Assembly: GCA_023205875.1 (NCBI GenBank)
Contig: CP060757.1
Location: 1,240,001-1,304,000 of the forward strand
DNA length: 64,000 nt
Direction of reading: 5' to 3'
Source of the DNA: Chloropicon primus
Taxonomy: Eukaryota
Every line of letters starts with the position of its first letter. Position 1 is the first letter of the stretch. The notes beneath the pieces were generated by a model. That model saw nothing but the letters and a program-made list of their open reading frames with translations. It ran no database searches and had not been told where the DNA came from. The position numbers and the translations under genes were made by a program. Positions 4,078 to 12,521 of this stretch are shown here, piece by piece.

Positions 4078-4676
4078 GGCGACGACGGTGGATGTCCTCG
4101 AAAGGCGAAGCCGATGGCGCGTTCTCTTTGCCTCTCTCTCTCTTCTCTTTGCCTCTCTCTGGTCCACGACCGTTATCTTCGTCGACAAAATCTAAGCAGA
4201 TCTTGATGAAAGGGCGGGCGGGAGGAGAGGGGGGAGTGCTTTTGTTTTTTGACAGAGTGATGCACATGCATTGTTTTACATATCGATAGGATGGTACACA
4301 TTTTTACATATACACGCAAGAGAGAAAGAGAGACACTTGTGCGTTCTTGCTCCTCTCTTCGTTTGGTTGTGCGCCCGAGCCCAGAGCAACCCGCGACGAC
4401 ACCGGGAGGGCCCGCGAAGAGGAAAAGAACTAAGAAAGAACCAAGCAAGCAAGAACATCAGAGATCGCCCTCCCAAGAACAAAAAAGAGAGGGGACGGGG
4501 CAGTGTAGATCCCCCCCCTTCACTTTGGGGTGGGTGGGTTGTTCTCAGACTCGAAAGATGGTGTTTTGGAAGAAAATTTTCATGGAAGAATTCTCAAAAC
4601 CTTTTGTCATCACCGAACACCGCGCGTTTCTTCTTCTTTCCATTCCCACCACTACTCACCTCGCATTCCCTCCGTT

Positions 4677-6101
4677 TCACTCGCAAGCGCCTTCGGCCTT
4701 CCCTCGCACCTTCTCCCAGCACGCTTCGAGCTTGCCAAGAAAATGGTCGACGTCCCTCTCCGTCATCCCGATGGCGGCGGCCGCGTTCAGGTAGCTGTGC
4801 GGGTAGGCCGAAGAGTGCGCGCCGTAGTTTACAAATTCGTGCCCGCAGACGGCCTGGCTCTTCCCCGGGGAGTAGACCCTCGCGCCCGAGATGCATCTCT
4901 GGAACAGCATGGAACCCAAGAACCTCGTCCTCTCGTCGGAGCCCCCGCAAGCGCTCTCGCGGAACCCGTCGAGGGTCATTGCGAAAGAGATGGGGTTCCC
5001 TGGGGTCTCCAAGACGCGCTCCCCCTTCGCTGACGCGAAGCTCCTGAGCCTCTGCCCGAGGTAAAGGTACAAGCTTTCCCTCTCCTTCAGGAGATCGGCC
5101 CAGCCCTTGGCCCCGAGGGAGAGCAGGGTGATGGTGACGTCCAGGAGGGGGGACATGGAGGCCCTGCCCGGGTAGGACTTGTCCACCATCTGGGGCACGT
5201 CCGAGAACCCCTTCTTCCCCACTATCACGGCCCCGCCCACGGGCACCATGAAGTTCTTGTCCGTGGACTGCACCACCGCGTCGACCCTTCCCTTCCTCCA
5301 GGAGGACGTGATCTCCTTGCATATCTCCGAGGACTGCACGCCGTAGGCGTTGTTGATGATGTGGGCCACGCCCTGGCGCTTGCACAGCTTCGCGACGTCC
5401 ACGATCTTGTCCGAGGCGCGGGGAGCGAAGCAGCTCGTGGTGGTGAGCACGCACAAGATCTCTCCCCCCTTGGACTCCACCTCGGCCTCCAGCTTGCCCA
5501 CGTCCGTGACCAGCTGGTCGCCCTCGAGCACGTTCTCCACCACCAGCGCTTGCAAATTGGCTGCGTAGATGCACTTGAGGCACGTCTTCTGATCGATCCG
5601 GGGCCACAGCACGTACTTTCCGCTTGGGTTGTGCCGCTTCAGGGCCTGGAGCACCAACGAGAGCGCCATCCCGGTCGCCACCGGCACGGTCGTCACGTAG
5701 CCCACCTCCCCCAACCCCGCGACCTCAAAGGCGTCCTTGACGAGAAAGTTGCAGACCTTGCACAGGAGGGAAGACCCCGCCGCCTTGGGCTGCACGGCGG
5801 ATATGTCCCCCGACCGACCAATGCCGTGGGCGAGGCCGTAGTGCCTGTCGTACACGAGGCGACTGTGGATCCTCCCCTCTCTCTCCCCCACGCCAGCGTT
5901 CTGCAGAAAGTTGTTGCTGTCCATGAGCGCCAGCTCTTTCAAGAAAAGGCGCACCGAGTCCTCGTCCCAGGCCTCGTCCGGCAGCCTCCTATTCGAAAGG
6001 AGCTTCTTGAAAAGCTTCCGCCTCGACGCCAACGCTTGCGCCCCCTGGTTCAGGTACGTCCCGGGCACCATCCCCTCGCAAGGAGACAACCAATCCTCCA
6101 T
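4677..6101 (-). CDS. SEPSECS: O-phosphoseryl-tRNA(Sec) selenium transferase
   Basis: MDSNNF, GEREGR, HGIGRSGDI..QPKAAGSS, WPRIDQKTC, NNAYGVQ, QSTDKNFMVPVGG, YPGRAS. Confidence 0.95.
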   Translation of the reverse strand: MEDWLSPCEGMVPGTYLNQGAQALASRRKLFKKLLSNRRLPDEAWDEDSVRLFLKELALMDSNNFLQNAGVGEREGRIHSRLVYDRHYGLAHGIGRSGDISAVQPKAAGSSLLCKVCNFLVKDAFEVAGLGEVGYVTTVPVATGMALSLVLQALKRHNPSGKYVLWPRIDQKTCLKCIYAANLQALVVENVLEGDQLVTDVGKLEAEVESKGGEILCVLTTTSCFAPRASDKIVDVAKLCKRQGVAHIINNAYGVQSSEICKEITSSWRKGRVDAVVQSTDKNFMVPVGGAVIVGKKGFSDVPQMVDKSYPGRASMSPLLDVTITLLSLGAKGWADLLKERESLYLYLGQRLRSFASAKGERVLETPGNPISFAMTLDGFRESACGGSDERTRFLGSMLFQRCISGARVYSPGKSQAVCGHEFVNYGAHSSAYPHSYLNAAAAIGMTERDVDHFLGKLEACWEKVRGKAEGACE

Positions 6102-6367
6102 CCCTCCCTCCCCCCTCTCGTCCTACGCCATCCTCCCTCCAACTCAACAACAACAACAACAACGTCCTCGCCCTCGGCCGACGACGACGACGGCGCTCGC
6201 GGCGGCCTCTCTGTTGGAGGTTTTCCCCTGTTGGTGGGATTCCAGTGTATACCAGTTTGGTCACACCCAAAGGACAACCCACAAAACGTTTTCTCGTTCT
6301 CACTTGCTGGACAAGGCACTGGTAAAAAATCTAGCCTCGCGAGAGGAAGGGAGGAGGACGCCGGGTG

Positions 6368-6376
6368 AAACCCTAA
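6368..6376 (+). promoter_or_regulatory. Telo-box-like motif AAACCCTAA just upstream of the Fanzor ATG
   Basis: Exact AAACCCTAA ending 5 nt before ATG 6382. Confidence 0.35.
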
Positions 6377-6381
6377 CAGTC

Positions 6382-8553
6382 ATGGCGCGATCAGGGAAGC
6401 GCCGTAAGAAAAAGGAGAAGCAGGGGAGTGGCTCGACGAGTTCCACAAGGAGGTCGCACTCTGGCGAGAGTCATGCTCAGGGCGCTTCGAAGTCGGGGCA
6501 GGAGTCTCCGACGACGGAGCGGCCGTTACTTCGGTTCTGGAATCAGGGTTTAGCCTGGCTCTACGCGTTGTGCCTGCTTCCTATTGCGGACGACCCCGCC
6601 TCTGCGGGTGAGGGTTCGAGCACGCCTCGCAAGAAGCGGGGGGGGAAGCGGAAGGAGACGCCGCTGGACGACCCCGCCTCTGCTTTCGAGGAGGGTTCGA
6701 GCACGCCTCGCAAGAAGCGGGGGGGGAAGCGGAAGGGGCGTCCGCCGGAGGCGGACGCCTCTGCGGGTGAGAGTTCGAGCTCGTCAGGCAAGCCTCGCAA
6801 GAAGCCTCGCAAGAAGGGCAAGAAGAAGAACAAGAAGAAGGGTAAGAAGAAGAAGAACAAGAGGGGGAAGAAAGCAGGGAAGCAGCCGGGTGGCTTGGCG
6901 GACGACAGCGTGAAGAAGACCTGGTTCTCATCGATCAAGAGAGAACTTGAAGAGGTAAAGTGTCCGAAGACGGGATGGAGGTCGTGCTTGAACCTTCCAG
7001 AAGATTCTGTGGTATCCGTCGAGACATTGCAGTCGCCCGCCAAAAGGAAGAGGGGGCAGAAACTGAAGACCTCCAAGCTATTGTCGGAGCGAACGGTGAT
7101 ACGGACGAGGAAGCTGAGGATGCGCTTGAACCCTGAGCAGGCGAAGTGCCTTTGCAACTGGATGGGAGCTGCGCGTTTCACATACAACAAGTGTTTGGAG
7201 GCGGTCAAGAAGGAGGGTTTTCCGCTGGTTTGGACCGTCCTGCTGGACAGATTTGTGACGGCCAAACCGCGACGCCCTGAGGTCTTTGAGGGCCTGGAGA
7301 AAGAGCTGAAAGAAATCCAATGCTCTCCACGGCCATGGACAAAACAGGAGGCAGAGCTTTTCGCGGCCAGAGAGAAGAGACTCGAGAGCCAAATTGGAGG
7401 CAGAGCTTTTCGCATCCAAGTCGCCAAGGACCGGGACTACGTTAGCGGGGCCTTTGTAAATCAGGAGCATCCTTGGCTGAAGGATACCCCCTGTGCCATC
7501 AGACAAGCTGCCGTGCGAAGTCTCATCAAGGCATGGGATTCGAACACCGCGAAGCAGGAAGCGATGAAGGAGCGCGGCGAGGAGAAGGGGCACCGCTTCG
7601 TTCTCAAGTATCGTCAACGTCAGCAACCGAGCTCTTGGACCATTGAAATTGATGCAAGAGAGTTAAAGAACGTGGAGACGATCGAAAGGCCAAACACGAG
7701 GCACAAGGATGACACCAAGCACAACAAACGACGCAAGTGGACCAAGCTGGAGGTGTTCAAGAAGAAGATGGCCGGCGGGCCCCTGTACTTGACGGAGGAG
7801 ATCCCCGGGGGCAAGATCGAGGGTGCCGTGAAGATCACAAGAAATCGCCTTGGGCAGTTCCACATGCACATTCCCATCGCGACGCCATGGGATCGCCTGC
7901 CACCCCTGAAGCCTGAGAACAAGCGGAAGGTTGTCGCCCTGGATCCGGGAGTCAGGACCTTTCAGACGTCGTACTCGCCGCAAGAAGGCGTCGGGGAGTA
8001 TGCCAAGGGCGAGCGAGGCTTCGCGAGGCTGTTCAACCTCTGCTGGAGGATTGATGAGATCATTTCCGAGCGCAAAGACCCAAAGGTGAAGCTCCCTTAC
8101 CTCGACCGCCGCGACTTGAAGAGACAGCAATACGCCTGCATGGAGAAACTTCGAGGTCTGACGAACGAGCTTCACAAAAAGGTAGCCAACGATCTATGCA
8201 GGAGGTTCGACACAATCCTCCTCCCGGAGTTCAAGTCCCAAGACATGGTGAAGAAGAACAACAACGGGAGACGCCGAGTGATCAGGAAGAAGACGGCTCG
8301 CACGCTCTTGACGTTGAGGCACTATGCGTTCAGAACGTTCTTGGCTTCCAAGGTGCTCTTGCACGGCAGTGAGCTGGCGATCGTGACGGAGGAGTACACC
8401 TCCAAGACCTGTGGCAGGTGCGGACACATCAAGAAGAACCTGGGTGGAGCAGAGGTGTACAAGTGCCAGAAGTGTGGCTTCAAGTGCGGTCGGGATGTGA
8501 ACGGGGCACGCAACGTCCTCCTGAAGCACTTGCGTCAACCAAAAAGTGTGTAA
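6382..8553 (+). CDS. Fanzor2-type (TnpB/IS607-related) RNA-guided endonuclease, ~723 aa from ATG 6382
   Basis: OrfB-type N-terminal helix (RKLRMRLNPEQ..WMGAARFTYN), RuvC-I ALDPG (D codon 7942), ILLPEF, EEYTSKTC (E codon 8389), Zn ribbon CGRC/CQKC, RuvC-III RDVNGARN (D codon 8494); Lys/Arg-rich N-terminus. Confidence 0.92.
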   Translation: MARSGKRRKKKEKQGSGSTSSTRRSHSGESHAQGASKSGQESPTTERPLLRFWNQGLAWLYALCLLPIADDPASAGEGSSTPRKKRGGKRKETPLDDPASAFEEGSSTPRKKRGGKRKGRPPEADASAGESSSSSGKPRKKPRKKGKKKNKKKGKKKKNKRGKKAGKQPGGLADDSVKKTWFSSIKRELEEVKCPKTGWRSCLNLPEDSVVSVETLQSPAKRKRGQKLKTSKLLSERTVIRTRKLRMRLNPEQAKCLCNWMGAARFTYNKCLEAVKKEGFPLVWTVLLDRFVTAKPRRPEVFEGLEKELKEIQCSPRPWTKQEAELFAAREKRLESQIGGRAFRIQVAKDRDYVSGAFVNQEHPWLKDTPCAIRQAAVRSLIKAWDSNTAKQEAMKERGEEKGHRFVLKYRQRQQPSSWTIEIDARELKNVETIERPNTRHKDDTKHNKRRKWTKLEVFKKKMAGGPLYLTEEIPGGKIEGAVKITRNRLGQFHMHIPIATPWDRLPPLKPENKRKVVALDPGVRTFQTSYSPQEGVGEYAKGERGFARLFNLCWRIDEIISERKDPKVKLPYLDRRDLKRQQYACMEKLRGLTNELHKKVANDLCRRFDTILLPEFKSQDMVKKNNNGRRRVIRKKTARTLLTLRHYAFRTFLASKVLLHGSELAIVTEEYTSKTCGRCGHIKKNLGGAEVYKCQKCGFKCGRDVNGARNVLLKHLRQPKSV
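6588..6810 (+). repeat. In-frame tandem duplication (period 78 bp; two copies plus a partial third) encoding NLS-like repeats
   Basis: GGACGACCCCGCCTCTGC...GAGGGTTCGAGCACGCCTCGCAAGAAGCGGGGGGGGAAGCGGAAGG at 6588-6655 and 6666-6736; partial copy from 6751. Confidence 0.9.
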
Positions 8554-8735
8554 CTCCTCAGGGTTGCACATACGTTTGTTAGTACGGGCTGCCGTGCGTG
8601 GGCGGAAGTATTCGTTCATGTACGGTGGAATGGTCGTGGTAGGGCCGAATTACCCTGCCGAGAAACTTACAAACTCGGTGAAACGACCTTTGCAGAAAAC
8701 TAACAGGTAAGTAGTGGCCGGCCTTCCTCCGTGTT
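8546..8735 (+). ncRNA. Candidate Fanzor omegaRNA (scaffold ~8546-8712, guide from ~8713)
   Basis: Hairpins 8546-8571 and 8591-8626; stem 8632-8637/8683-8688 enclosing two hairpins; closing stem 8577-8583/8699-8705; pseudoknot 8665-8670/8707-8712; many G-U pairs, which favour the + strand. Confidence 0.75.
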
Positions 8736-9155
8736 TCTCTCTTTCAGTGGAAAGGAGAACTTGCCTTTGTGCTTCCAGTATTGACTGTGATTTCCCTACC
8801 GTCCTTTCGTGACTTTTCTGTGTGCTGTTTTTGATCTGATGTCTGAACACCATAACACTCTCCCTCCCTCTCAGTTTTCCTGAAAACTCACGGTCAGGGA
8901 ACTCCAGGCCCTCCCAGAAGGCAGGGAGAACTCCAAGGCAGTGACCTTGGCGTCGAGGAAGGGAGGGGAAGGACAGGTTTGCAGAGGAGGCAGGAGGCAG
9001 GGAGGCGGGGCGATGGGTGCTTGGTAGCCCTGGCCGCGGTTGGCGATTCGTGAGACCAAGCGTCCGAGAAATTTCGAGGGAGGGGGCGGGACGTCTTCCA
9101 CATGGTCTCGCGGGAGGGGAAATAGACCACTACTTGGCACACGAGAGTCCTTGGG

Positions 9156-12100
9156 ATGGGAAAGTGGATAGAAGCGCTCGTCGTTCTGGGGAGGGCGGAC
9201 GCGTCCCCGGAGGCCAGCGCGCGGACTTCGAGAGCGGCGAGCTCTGAGTTCGACAACCGGGCGTCCATATTGAGGTGCATTCCCGGGGAGGCGAGGGAGC
9301 ACCTCCCACCGCAGCTCAGTGTCTGCTGCCTTCCCACGGGAATCCAGAGAAAGCCTTTCCACCACAGGTCGCTGAGCAAGTACTACGACAAGTACAATGT
9401 CGTCCTCACGGACTCAACGGGCAACAAGACCTACGGCTACTGCTGCACCTTCTTCGACGTTTGCTCCGACAGGGTTCCGCGGGAGGGGGAGAGCCAGGAA
9501 GACGAGTTTGCTTACACAAAGTGTCTCTGCCTGATATCCAAAGACCCTCTCTACTCGACCTTCGAGACCTTGGTGCAGACGATGTACTCCACTTGCTTCT
9601 ACCAGCGGTCGGTGCTGAGCTACAACTACGACCTCCTCGCCGAAATTGTGACGAGAGTGAACCTCTTGCCAAGAGAGCTGGGCAGTCCCATGCACCTCAT
9701 TCTTCCGATCGACAGCAGGACCATTCACCTGGAGTTCGAGTGCCTCCCGGAGGGTTCGCCCTCCGAGATTCAGATCGACGACGTGGTCGGGATCAAGCCA
9801 AAGGCCTTGCTGTGCCTCTTCGAGGCGGTGCTGCTGGAGAGGAAGGTGATTCTGAGGTCAGAGAGCAAAGCCAAATTGAGCGGCGTGGCAGAGGCTCTGT
9901 GCGAGCTCTTGTACCCCATGACCTGGCAGCACATCTACATCCCGATCGTTCCCCAGGGGCTGACAGAGTATTTGGAGGCGCCCACGCCATACTTGATGGG
10001 CGTTCTCTCCAGCATCTCGACTCACAGCTTGAACTACGATCAGTCGATCGAGATCAACATCGACGACTCCACCTGCCACTTTGGGGAAGACTTCTCCCTG
10101 CCCTTCTGTGACGACTTCGTGCTGCTCAGGAAGCGGCTGGAGCAGCTGCCACGGGAGGGCGGCCACTTGGATCGCAACAGGTACTTGAAGCACAGGGAGA
10201 GGGATATCAGGTCCTTGTTCTTGGAGTTCGTGACCAACTTGTTGGCAGAGGCCCGCAAGCACTTTCAGCAAAACAAAAGAGACTTCGGGGAGGTCAGCGG
10301 CCAGGACCCTGACTTTCTGCAATCGTTCATGGAGACGCAGATGTTCCAGAATTTCTTTCACAATTCTCCGGGAATGCTCGACGCCCAAGAATTCGATGCG
10401 ATGAGGTCCCGCTTGACGGAGAGGTTTTCCCTCGTGTCCGAGGCGCAGGCAGTCGGCAAGCAAGTCGAGATCGTGAGCTTCCAATCCATGCTGCCGTCGG
10501 CTGATATAGCCAGCGACCTGGAAGGAGCAAAGAAAAACTCCCTGGCCAATCTGAGCGGTGCGGAGGGGTGGAGGAGCAAGGCGGAGGACAAAATGTACTC
10601 GAAGCTTCAAATGGAGGCAATAAAGAGCGAGAGGATTGTAGACTTGCACGAGTCTGGCCTGCAAGTCACTCCTGATGGTGGTGGAAACAGCAGCGATTTC
10701 TCGTACAACGAGAAGATCGAGGAGCTCTTCGATTGCGTGTACTTATATTTTCAGACGAAATACGGGAACCTTCTGTTCGACACGAGTTCCTCGATTGTCA
10801 GGCAGTGCATCGATAGCGTGGGCAGCATGGAGCATCTGACGGCAATGGTGGACGTCTTCAAGTACACTATTATGGAATCAAAGAGCAAAACGATAGAGTT
10901 CCACAGCCTGGACACCATGCAGAAGTTGATTCCCGTGTTCGAGGACATTGTCATGAAAGCAATCCACTCGGGCGACCACATCTTGGCGTTTGGGGTGCTG
11001 GCCATGAGCCTGTTCATCGAGTACAAGCCCGTGCCTGATGGGGGCGAGGGCATCACGGCTTTTGCGCACGTCGTAAACGATTTCCCGAAGAACAAATCCT
11101 TCTGGGTGGAGTTGGTGTCTTCGATCGTCGGGGGCGCTCAAAATTTGGAAGCAGAGGAGTCGGCGGCCGGCTACGAGTTTGTCGCAGATCTCCTGCTCCT
11201 CTGCTCGGTGATATTTGGTGATGACACCTGGTATGAAGCTTCAGTTCACGATCTCGCCGAGAAGATCACGATGAGCGAGCTCGAAGCAAAGGACATCAAA
11301 GTCATGTGCCTCCTGAGCAAGTCCAAATTTAGTCCAAGGGCAGTCTCCATGTGCCCAGATTCTAACTGGAACTTGCTAGGGAAGTTCCAAGCCGCGGAGT
11401 TGAGAGAAATGGAGGTGCGCCTACCTTCAGGAGAGTTGAAGGCAGCCCCGAATTCTCCCGTGAAGTCTATGGACTCGTTTTCGAACGTGATCATCGCTGC
11501 CACGTGCGATGCCCAGGTCCGCTTGTATAGTAAACCTTCAGGGGGGTCCAAGATACTGAGGGCTCCCGCATCGGTGCTGAGGCAGAGATCACGCCTCAAT
11601 CTCGTGAAGTTTAGTCGGGAAGGGTCCAACTTCTTCATTGTATCAAACAGAATCGGAGTCTGGGACACGAGATCCTTGAAAAGCATTCGTCACATGGAGG
11701 TGGAAGACACTCACTCGTGTTTTCGCGTCAGAAAGAACAATTCGGGGAAGGACTCCATTCTGGCTGGGACTGCAAAGGGAAGTTGCAAGCTGTGGGACCA
11801 CCTGTCCTCGGCCTCAGCTGCCTGCCTATCCTTTGAAGGCCATTCCAAGCAGGTGACAAAGATAACGTGCCTGGAGGGAGACAATAATCTGTTTGTATCC
11901 TCTTCCCGGGACGGTAGAGCTCTGCTGTGGGACGTGAGAAAGAACGGGGAGCCGGTGCACACGATGGTTGGGCACGAGTCTTGGATCACGGACCACCGAA
12001 TTTTCTACTGTGGCGACGACCCCTATCTCGTGTGCGGCAGCGACGATTGGACGAGCACGGTTTGGAACCTCAGCAACGGAAGCCTCTGCTGCACCTACTA

Positions 12101-12521
12101 TGGCCATACCAGTCCCGTTTGTTCGCTTGCGGTGTGCTCCAGCGATCCCGAAGAAGGTCCTGTGATTGCTTCTGGCGATTGCACAGGGTCGATCCAGCTC
12201 TGGAGAGCTACTCTGGGCGATGTGTACACTTCTGGCGCTACCCTCGAGTCTCTGTCTCTGAGAACGAGAGGCGATCCGGTACTCAAAGTGGAGTGCCAGG
12301 GGTCGAAGCCCTTGATCGCCTGCCACTCAAGCAACACTGTGGCATCGTGGGAGCTCTGCGGCAGCGAGGGTGACCTTAGCGCAAACTGCAAGGCTTACCT
12401 CGACCTGAGTCTGCACTTCACCGCATGCAAAGTGGACTACGCCACGAATTTCGTATACAGTGGTTGCGCAAACGGCAACGTTGTGGCGTGGAGCCTCGCC
12501 GAGGGGATGTGCTCCTTGTGA
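9156..12521 (+). CDS. DENN-domain plus C-terminal WD40 protein (SCD1-like Rab GEF)
   Basis: uDENN/DENN motifs (VLTDSTGNKTYG, LLERKVIL, LLYPMTWQHIYIPI, EAPTPYLMG) and C-terminal WD40 repeats. Confidence 0.85.
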   Translation: MGKWIEALVVLGRADASPEASARTSRAASSEFDNRASILRCIPGEAREHLPPQLSVCCLPTGIQRKPFHHRSLSKYYDKYNVVLTDSTGNKTYGYCCTFFDVCSDRVPREGESQEDEFAYTKCLCLISKDPLYSTFETLVQTMYSTCFYQRSVLSYNYDLLAEIVTRVNLLPRELGSPMHLILPIDSRTIHLEFECLPEGSPSEIQIDDVVGIKPKALLCLFEAVLLERKVILRSESKAKLSGVAEALCELLYPMTWQHIYIPIVPQGLTEYLEAPTPYLMGVLSSISTHSLNYDQSIEINIDDSTCHFGEDFSLPFCDDFVLLRKRLEQLPREGGHLDRNRYLKHRERDIRSLFLEFVTNLLAEARKHFQQNKRDFGEVSGQDPDFLQSFMETQMFQNFFHNSPGMLDAQEFDAMRSRLTERFSLVSEAQAVGKQVEIVSFQSMLPSADIASDLEGAKKNSLANLSGAEGWRSKAEDKMYSKLQMEAIKSERIVDLHESGLQVTPDGGGNSSDFSYNEKIEELFDCVYLYFQTKYGNLLFDTSSSIVRQCIDSVGSMEHLTAMVDVFKYTIMESKSKTIEFHSLDTMQKLIPVFEDIVMKAIHSGDHILAFGVLAMSLFIEYKPVPDGGEGITAFAHVVNDFPKNKSFWVELVSSIVGGAQNLEAEESAAGYEFVADLLLLCSVIFGDDTWYEASVHDLAEKITMSELEAKDIKVMCLLSKSKFSPRAVSMCPDSNWNLLGKFQAAELREMEVRLPSGELKAAPNSPVKSMDSFSNVIIAATCDAQVRLYSKPSGGSKILRAPASVLRQRSRLNLVKFSREGSNFFIVSNRIGVWDTRSLKSIRHMEVEDTHSCFRVRKNNSGKDSILAGTAKGSCKLWDHLSSASAACLSFEGHSKQVTKITCLEGDNNLFVSSSRDGRALLWDVRKNGEPVHTMVGHESWITDHRIFYCGDDPYLVCGSDDWTSTVWNLSNGSLCCTYYGHTSPVCSLAVCSSDPEEGPVIASGDCTGSIQLWRATLGDVYTSGATLESLSLRTRGDPVLKVECQGSKPLIACHSSNTVASWELCGSEGDLSANCKAYLDLSLHFTACKVDYATNFVYSGCANGNVVAWSLAEGMCSL

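Follow-up and report, generated by a model that had tools for sequence, protein, structure and literature searches.

Fanzors and pro-Fanzors are defined by a DPG motif in RuvC-I, an alternative glutamate before the zinc finger and the absence of the canonical glutamate (Yoon 2023, PMC10711439). In the text of the same study the family of Chloropicon primus is assigned to the Fanzor2*s and described as non-autonomous, with a variable 5-nt target-site duplication (TSD) and no partner found (see also preprint 10.1101/2023.08.09.552727). It is the same family as the 25 C. primus genes annotated as 'putative IS605 transposase' in Lemieux 2019 (PMC6731263), most of which have an RNA depth of 19-88. 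Two intermediates are cited for the capture of IS607 nucleases by eukaryotic transposons, one of them being C. primus Fanzor2*. The capture model has new ends absorbed into the guide scaffold, and Yoon 2023 states in general terms, as a prediction, that the scaffold of Fanzor2*s appears to include TIR and TSD. Characterized Fanzor2 enzymes recognize a TAM that is GGG for ApmFz2, as found by experiment (PMC11832414), and A/T-rich for mollusc enzymes (Jiang 2023). ApmFz2 (or ApmFNuc; mimivirus L79, PDB 9B0L; PMC11832414, PMC10530073) is encoded within an IS607 that also carries TnpA, draws its guide from the flanking sequence and uses an RNA closed by a pseudoknot, formed between a 5′ segment and bases -4 to 0, those immediately preceding the guide. 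IS607-type IStrons, which end in CGG (PMC13565253), carry a splice site at the scaffold-guide junction of their IS607-type nuclease (10.1101/2023.11.20.567912).

The locus described here has the rearranged triad of ApmFz2 and may have, by prediction, a similar closing pseudoknot before the guide, whereas its TnpA is decayed and its cassette nested in another element. As in IStrons, a splice site is predicted to lie at the scaffold-guide junction; unlike in IStrons, it is a spliceosomal 5′ donor, which leaves ORF and scaffold within the exon and exchanges the sequence behind them. The scaffold seems to have kept the old IS607 end, and this layout matters because a capture intermediate meets a spliceosomal donor where the model expects absorbed ends, a eukaryotic parallel to IStrons. 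The protein and the element are already in print, but the splice arrangement is apparently undescribed: the internal scaffold end, the donor and the TnpA trace do not figure in the accessible text of Yoon 2023 and Lemieux 2019, the term 'splic' is absent from the Yoon preprint (10.1101/2023.08.09.552727), and the open literature searched held no report of an internal scaffold end or donor, the figures and supplementary figures of Yoon 2023 being a place that may bear on it.

We analyzed a 64,000-nt stretch of C. primus DNA, referred to as the window. The Fanzor2 ORF (6382..8553, + strand) is open throughout and encodes 723 aa without a stop; the proteins listed in the text of Yoon 2023 match it nearly letter for letter. 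It is located, as stated in the preliminary description of this DNA, between a host SEPSECS gene (4677..6101, - strand, divergent; PF05889, E 3e-125) and a host SCD1-like gene with DENN and WD40 domains by domain search (9156..12521, + strand). The same description called it intronless, and the RNA contigs indeed have no joint within the ORF. An in-frame ATG upstream (5923) falls outside the element defined below, and the paralogs P0002, P0003 and P0005 begin with the same MARSGK. In-frame tandem repeats (81/78-87 bp; 6597..6816, + strand) lie in the low-complexity N-terminus and are shortened in P0003 and P0005.

The protein comprises a Lys-rich N-terminus, WED/REC, RuvC and a Zn ribbon. Motifs were located at DPG 521, ILLPEF 612 (P615 occupying the canonical RuvC-II site), EEYTSKTC 670 and RD 704-705, which places the RuvC catalytic codons at D521 (7942-7944), E670 (8389-8391) and D705 (8494-8496), all on the + strand; the Zn ribbon cysteines of the ORF are C677/680/695/698 (CGRC 677, CQKC 695). 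In a 103-row alignment, the numbering of which is offset by 176 from that of the ORF, D521, P615, E670, D705 and the four Zn cysteines were invariant, and E670 aligned with ApmFz2 E467. DPG and the alternative glutamate E670 are present and the canonical glutamate is absent (P615), the signature of Fanzors and pro-Fanzors. Pfam identified Cas12f1-like_TNB and HTH_OrfB_IS605 domains. The top solved relative by sequence was the mimivirus Fanzor2 9B0L (E 3.8e-19; profile search E 3e-38), which also ranked first in a Foldseek search (E 8.6e-20) with the predicted structure (model pLDDT 89.8), SpuFz1 entries being found at rank 39 at best (E 1.6e-6 or worse); identity to 9B0L is 18% over the fold alignment. 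Sequence and predicted fold make the protein a Fanzor2, nearer to ApmFz2 and to pro-Fanzors of the IS607 type than to Fanzor1, a placement for which the quick tree contained no Fanzor1 reference. The Fanzor2 assignment, the rearranged triad with its proline and the complete set of acidic residues and cysteines, all previously proposed from the letters alone, were borne out by translation, alignment and fold. A TAM prediction from ApmFz2 residues R194, H215 and E260 was dropped because the region did not align.

The ORF is carried by a non-autonomous transposon of 2,646 bp (6212..8857, + strand) with TGTT...AACA ends, bordered by two copies of a 5-bp TSD, CTCTC (left 6207..6211, right 8858..8862, + strand). 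In the DNA run X1, contig depth was 4,100-4,900 in the element body vs ~139 in the flanks, i.e. 29-35 fold, indicating ~30 copies; the sequence of other copies diverges at 8857 in X1 and in the putative RNA runs X3 and X5, and at 8858 in the putative RNA run X7. The four best of 658 homologs, all bearing the name 'putative IS605 transposase [Chloropicon primus]', share 91-98% identity with the 723-aa protein. Three heterozygous insertions of 2,664-2,707 bp with the same ends appear among ten over-long cells of the indel table of Lemieux 2019 (PMC6731263) and coexist with an empty allele in this mostly diploid strain. For two of the three (Supplementary Data 8, rows 49 and 94), 25-26 extra bases are found on the right-end side, an excess that may reflect an artefact of calling, a duplication of some length or flanking sequence carried along. 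Yoon 2023 calls the ends (degenerate) TIRs in its text, whereas here only TGTT/AACA was seen: inverted similarity beyond these bases, long TIRs included, did not exceed that of shuffles (p 0.22-0.50). Blastn of the element against the 64-kb window returned only the self-hit among the matches listed. A 2025 comparison places the family among C. primus-specific orthogroups, present in both strains and absent from C. roscoffensis (PMC12301720).

The arrangement is that of a Fanzor2*, a Fanzor2 within a non-IS607 element bearing a TSD, and differs from a canonical IS607 carrier by five stops in the TnpA frame, the 5-bp TSD and a mobile unit extending 151 nt beyond the predicted scaffold. The nuclease had initially been thought to be stand-alone, or else domesticated, a view given up here because the gene belongs to a recently mobile, already published element present in ~30 copies; the suggestion of a non-autonomous element holds, and no intact transposase lies nearby.

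Variation among copies was also recorded. The 24 variant codons of the ORF comprise 17 replacement and 7 silent changes (neutrality not rejected, p 0.34-0.59), and none of them hits a catalytic residue. A diverged subfamily (8406-8593; ~5 copies by depth, 11 differences in 136 nt) has the first part of the scaffold in common and departs from the main sequence beyond 8593. Transcripts also come from deleted derivatives: in one, 6985 is joined to a right end with CGG in front of the donor, and another skips 6319-8798. In X3, loose ends on both sides of 8257-8298 suggest an insertion in the RuvC region of another copy.

Relatives point to an IS607 origin. In a quick SH-aLRT tree of 103 rows (top homologs and the 70 best loci), the C. 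primus copies (support 99) fell in a 34-row clade (95) together with L001-L005, and 94 of 160 metagenomic and viral loci had an IS607 TnpA-like match, L001-L005 included, the metagenome scan having covered 30 of 64 parts. In the nearest loci the TnpA gene runs in another frame across the start of the Fanzor gene, over its N-terminus; L004 has an intact TnpA (MerR and Resolvase) and the partial L003 an open one, while that of L002 meets a stop at the catalytic motif and that of L001 is cut short. The N-terminal extension of the clade is written in the second frame over the IS607 recombinase gene (L003:1-480, L004:220-1008, L002:250-960). With the L004 TnpA as query, tblastn gave 6879-7061 (33% over 61 aa, E 0.001) and 6438-6758 (E 0.3), matches no better than a low-complexity noise match elsewhere in the same search (E 5e-4), and the equivalent frame holds five stops between 6384 and 7097. 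A decayed remnant of the serine recombinase TnpA is nevertheless likely at 6438..7061 (+ strand), in the second frame under the Fanzor N-terminus, its main support being positional, as L001-L005 carry TnpA at the same place. The statement that no transposase is found nearby therefore stands for an intact enzyme, and gives way for this probable trace. The best prokaryotic match reached 43% in the best segment among 80 of 336 loci, many of them cyanobacterial, and viral relatives did not exceed 52% over a short segment, none being close. Downstream of the complete IS607-Fanzor2 of L004, an ORF (L004:2432-2890) resembles by eye what we take to be a viral prohead protease, so the host of L004 may be a large virus.

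We then looked for the end of the guide scaffold. The region 8540-8707 is predicted to fold with a z of -5.24, a value reached by none of 200 shuffles, whereas 8707-8874 appears unstructured (z +0.76), the last 151 nt of the element being T-rich. The predicted omegaRNA scaffold (8546..8706, + strand) would be shut by a closing helix of 8576-8583 with 8699-8706 (+ strand). L002 shares both helix strands (a 12-nt block, found in 1 of 150 shuffles, and a 9-nt block) and is the only one of four relatives to do so, no significant shared block being seen in L001, L003 and L004. Over five elements, 37 of 40 cells pair and 4 of 8 positions show changes in both strands; the register was chosen by eye, because MAFFT, applied to the five 3′ regions, put the 5′ strand of the window in the wrong place. 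In a blind scan the closing helix alone was no better than chance in all five sequences (p 0.64-0.99). Rfam gave three chance matches, all below threshold, and the right-end pattern had no match in viral contigs. Similarity to IS607 relatives stops at 8704-8708, the sequence 3′ of the L002 scaffold end resembles a host reading frame, and the end trinucleotide in this register is CAG here and CGG in L001 and L002 (CGG or CCG in relatives overall). On these comparisons we place the old IS607 right end, and hence the scaffold end, with good confidence at 8706, 151 nt inside the mobile unit. Contrary to the Fanzor2* feature predicted by Yoon 2023, TIR and TSD would stay outside this scaffold, the terminal 151 nt being predicted as unstructured and spliced out. 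For enzyme assays, the scaffold to choose would be 8546-8706, not one running to the transposon end.

A perfect splice donor, AG|GTAAGT, starts at 8707 directly after CAG. AGGTAAGT occurs only twice in 128 kb (the window, both strands). Two of the four putative RNA runs, X3 and X5, have contigs with the joint 8706 to 8875, which defines a GT-AG intron of 168 nt (8707..8874, + strand) made of the GTAAGT donor and element end (151 nt), the TSD and 12 nt of flank; the DNA run X1 continues unspliced. As acceptor it uses the first AG downstream of the element, with no AG between 8779 and 8872 in a pyrimidine-rich stretch, and the size is close to the mean of C. primus introns (152-154 nt; PMC12301720). 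In all four putative RNA runs, from three studies, the main contig ends at 8706 (X3, X5, X7) or 8707 (X6), and other partner sequences follow the donor, one each in X3, X5 and X6. Intron depth relative to the scaffold contig was 6%, 13% and 12% in RNA runs vs 88% in DNA, contig depth being a crude measure of level in runs that are labelled 'RNA?' and give polyA-type contigs at best, of a kind that would miss a small unspliced omegaRNA. In a noisy long-read consensus (PMC6731263), CAG|GTAAGT is retained in two further copies, with variation beyond +6.

The insertion also bears on the neighbouring genes. Since the element lies only 110 bp from the SEPSECS start (6102-6211), it likely split a short two-way promoter. 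In X3 and X5 the SCD1-like contigs open with sequence of the element, which is therefore the likely source of the first exon, a reading of contigs that cannot reveal the start site of the SCD1-like transcript; X6 barely covers this gene and X7 has no cover at 8868-8910. Upstream ATGs (9013 and 9102) precede the SCD1-like ORF within 8875-9155. A sigma-70 promoter scan found nothing, the model being bacterial and irrelevant to a eukaryote. In X1, a DNA contig runs from 8831 on, from the element end through the SCD1-like gene, so that only the filled allele is seen at this site; together with paralogs named C. primus, it places the Fanzor2 gene in a eukaryotic genome.

What would the nuclease do in such an element? 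Our leading explanation, held at about even odds, is that the nuclease has lost homing and travels as a mostly disarmed passenger in a Fanzor2* transposon, the transcripts of which are spliced from 8706 into host sequence. On the ORF, ends, TSD, copy number and splice joints, all observed directly, the following scheme can be built. An IS607-Fanzor2 cassette with a decaying recombinase would have entered a small TG...CA mobile element, the right end of the cassette coming to abut a splice donor 151 nt from the end of the carrier. An integrase-type transposase would copy the whole unit in trans, and the element would likely serve as promoter or first exon for the downstream gene. Scaffold end, guide content, TAM, mover and lack of homing are what we infer. 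What follows the scaffold is the intron start of the element when the RNA is unspliced and the start of a host exon when it is spliced, as the majority is. Spliced RNA would account for most of the RNP's load, and the guides would be host exon starts, which match DNA only behind AG, in filled and empty alleles alike. Exon-start sequences in DNA follow an AG acceptor, not the G-rich TAM of characterized Fanzor2s, and would therefore mostly remain uncut. As the predicted scaffold does not adjoin the flank and no TAM is constant, a guide to the empty insertion site likely cannot form. The active nuclease proposed in the preliminary description would agree with the intact residues, while the RNA layout argues against the usual empty-site guide.

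The persisting empty alleles and the neutral-looking 17:7 codon ratio fit the passenger reading, bearing in mind that the three heterozygous sites may be too recent for conversion. Against it, the 723-codon frame and all catalytic and Zn residues were kept while decay of the overlapping TnpA frame went well beyond the state seen in L001 and L002. The kept frame points to long selection on the protein, perhaps before capture.

Three other schemas retain a role for the guide. According to the first, which we regard as unlikely but the best placed of the alternatives, the spliceosome joins the scaffold to the downstream exon of each copy, which becomes the guide, and the acceptor YAG acts as TAM. 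Such a constant acceptor AG would solve the variable 5-bp TSD, and the enzyme would bind or cut beside its own copies with ~30 guides against exon starts. In its favour, the last base of the predicted helix is also the final base of the exon, at one of the two donors of this kind in the 128 kb and with CAG replacing the CGG or CCG of relatives; most transcripts appear spliced, to different partners, and the catalytic residues are intact. The difficulty is the target: being present in filled and empty alleles, its cutting gives no homing advantage and harms the host. The coincidence itself is also explained without selection, by IS607 insertion at GG beside an existing donor. If true, this would be a eukaryotic RNA-guided nuclease with spliceosome-written guides.

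The second schema, to which we give rather little credence, takes the unspliced RNA: the guide would be the element's own 8707-8727, and the targets Fanzor-less or variant sibling elements, to be cut and converted. It applies ordinary IS607 logic to the site entered, has unspliced contigs at 6-13% to draw on and might explain the absence of an autonomous partner in the text of Yoon 2023; the deleted derivative of X3 and X5 (loose ends 6985), reading CGG before the same donor, could be a GG-type target. Yet the would-be guide varies among copies after +6, 8707-8727 has no second match in the window, and a DNA joint from the left end to 8707, expected for an empty carrier, is missing among the X1 loose ends listed.

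The third, the canonical Fanzor2* mode, is improbable here. The scaffold would take in the terminal sequence and the TSD, the guide would be the right flank and the element would be restored at empty sites, in line with the general statement of Yoon 2023 on Fanzor2* scaffolds and with the way other Fanzors work (Jiang 2023; PMC13565253). It is at odds with the unstructured, T-rich and spliced-out last 151 nt, with the end of IS607-relative conservation at 8704-8708, with a variable TSD that leaves no constant TAM before the guide and with the persistence of empty alleles in the data of Lemieux 2019. Finally, a host gene that was domesticated, contamination from bacteria or a misassembly would agree with an intact and transcribed ORF but is highly improbable: such readings are refuted by the ~30 near-identical polymorphic copies, the TSD and the heterozygous insertions, and have against them an orthogroup confined to C. 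primus, the DNA contig running into a host gene and the 43% of the best prokaryotic match (among 80 of 336 listed).

As for the mover supposed in the passenger reading, the TG...CA ends and 5-bp TSD make an integrase-type transposase acting in trans likely. Integrase-type DDE transposons (Ginger2, 4-5 bp TSD; LTR elements, 3-6 bp; IS481EU, TGT..ACA; PMC10045372) are alike in TGT...ACA ends and 5-bp TSD, a likeness of the ends alone. The searched part of the C. primus gene table gave no retroviral-type integrase or DDE label, and one secondary 'int; integrase' KO on a hypothetical protein; the accessible orthogroup lists of C. primus contained no integrase-type transposase. A solo-LTR reading was rejected: one flank after 8857 starts with TGG, yet no tRNA primer site was seen by eye.

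A separate observation was made in ENA metagenomes. A literature search on Exo1-Fanzor fusion returned no mention of Fanzor among the matches listed. In P0028, P0064 and P0122, an Exo1/XPG-type 5′ nuclease is fused in frame to a Fanzor2-type nuclease whose part carries DPG, the alternative glutamate and RD. P0028 and P0064 are 51% identical and both belong to the clade of the 723-aa protein, and the Exo1 part has its best named match in the XPG/Rad2 protein of C. primus (47%). With a resection nuclease coupled to it, an RNA-guided cutter could tip the balance towards homologous repair.
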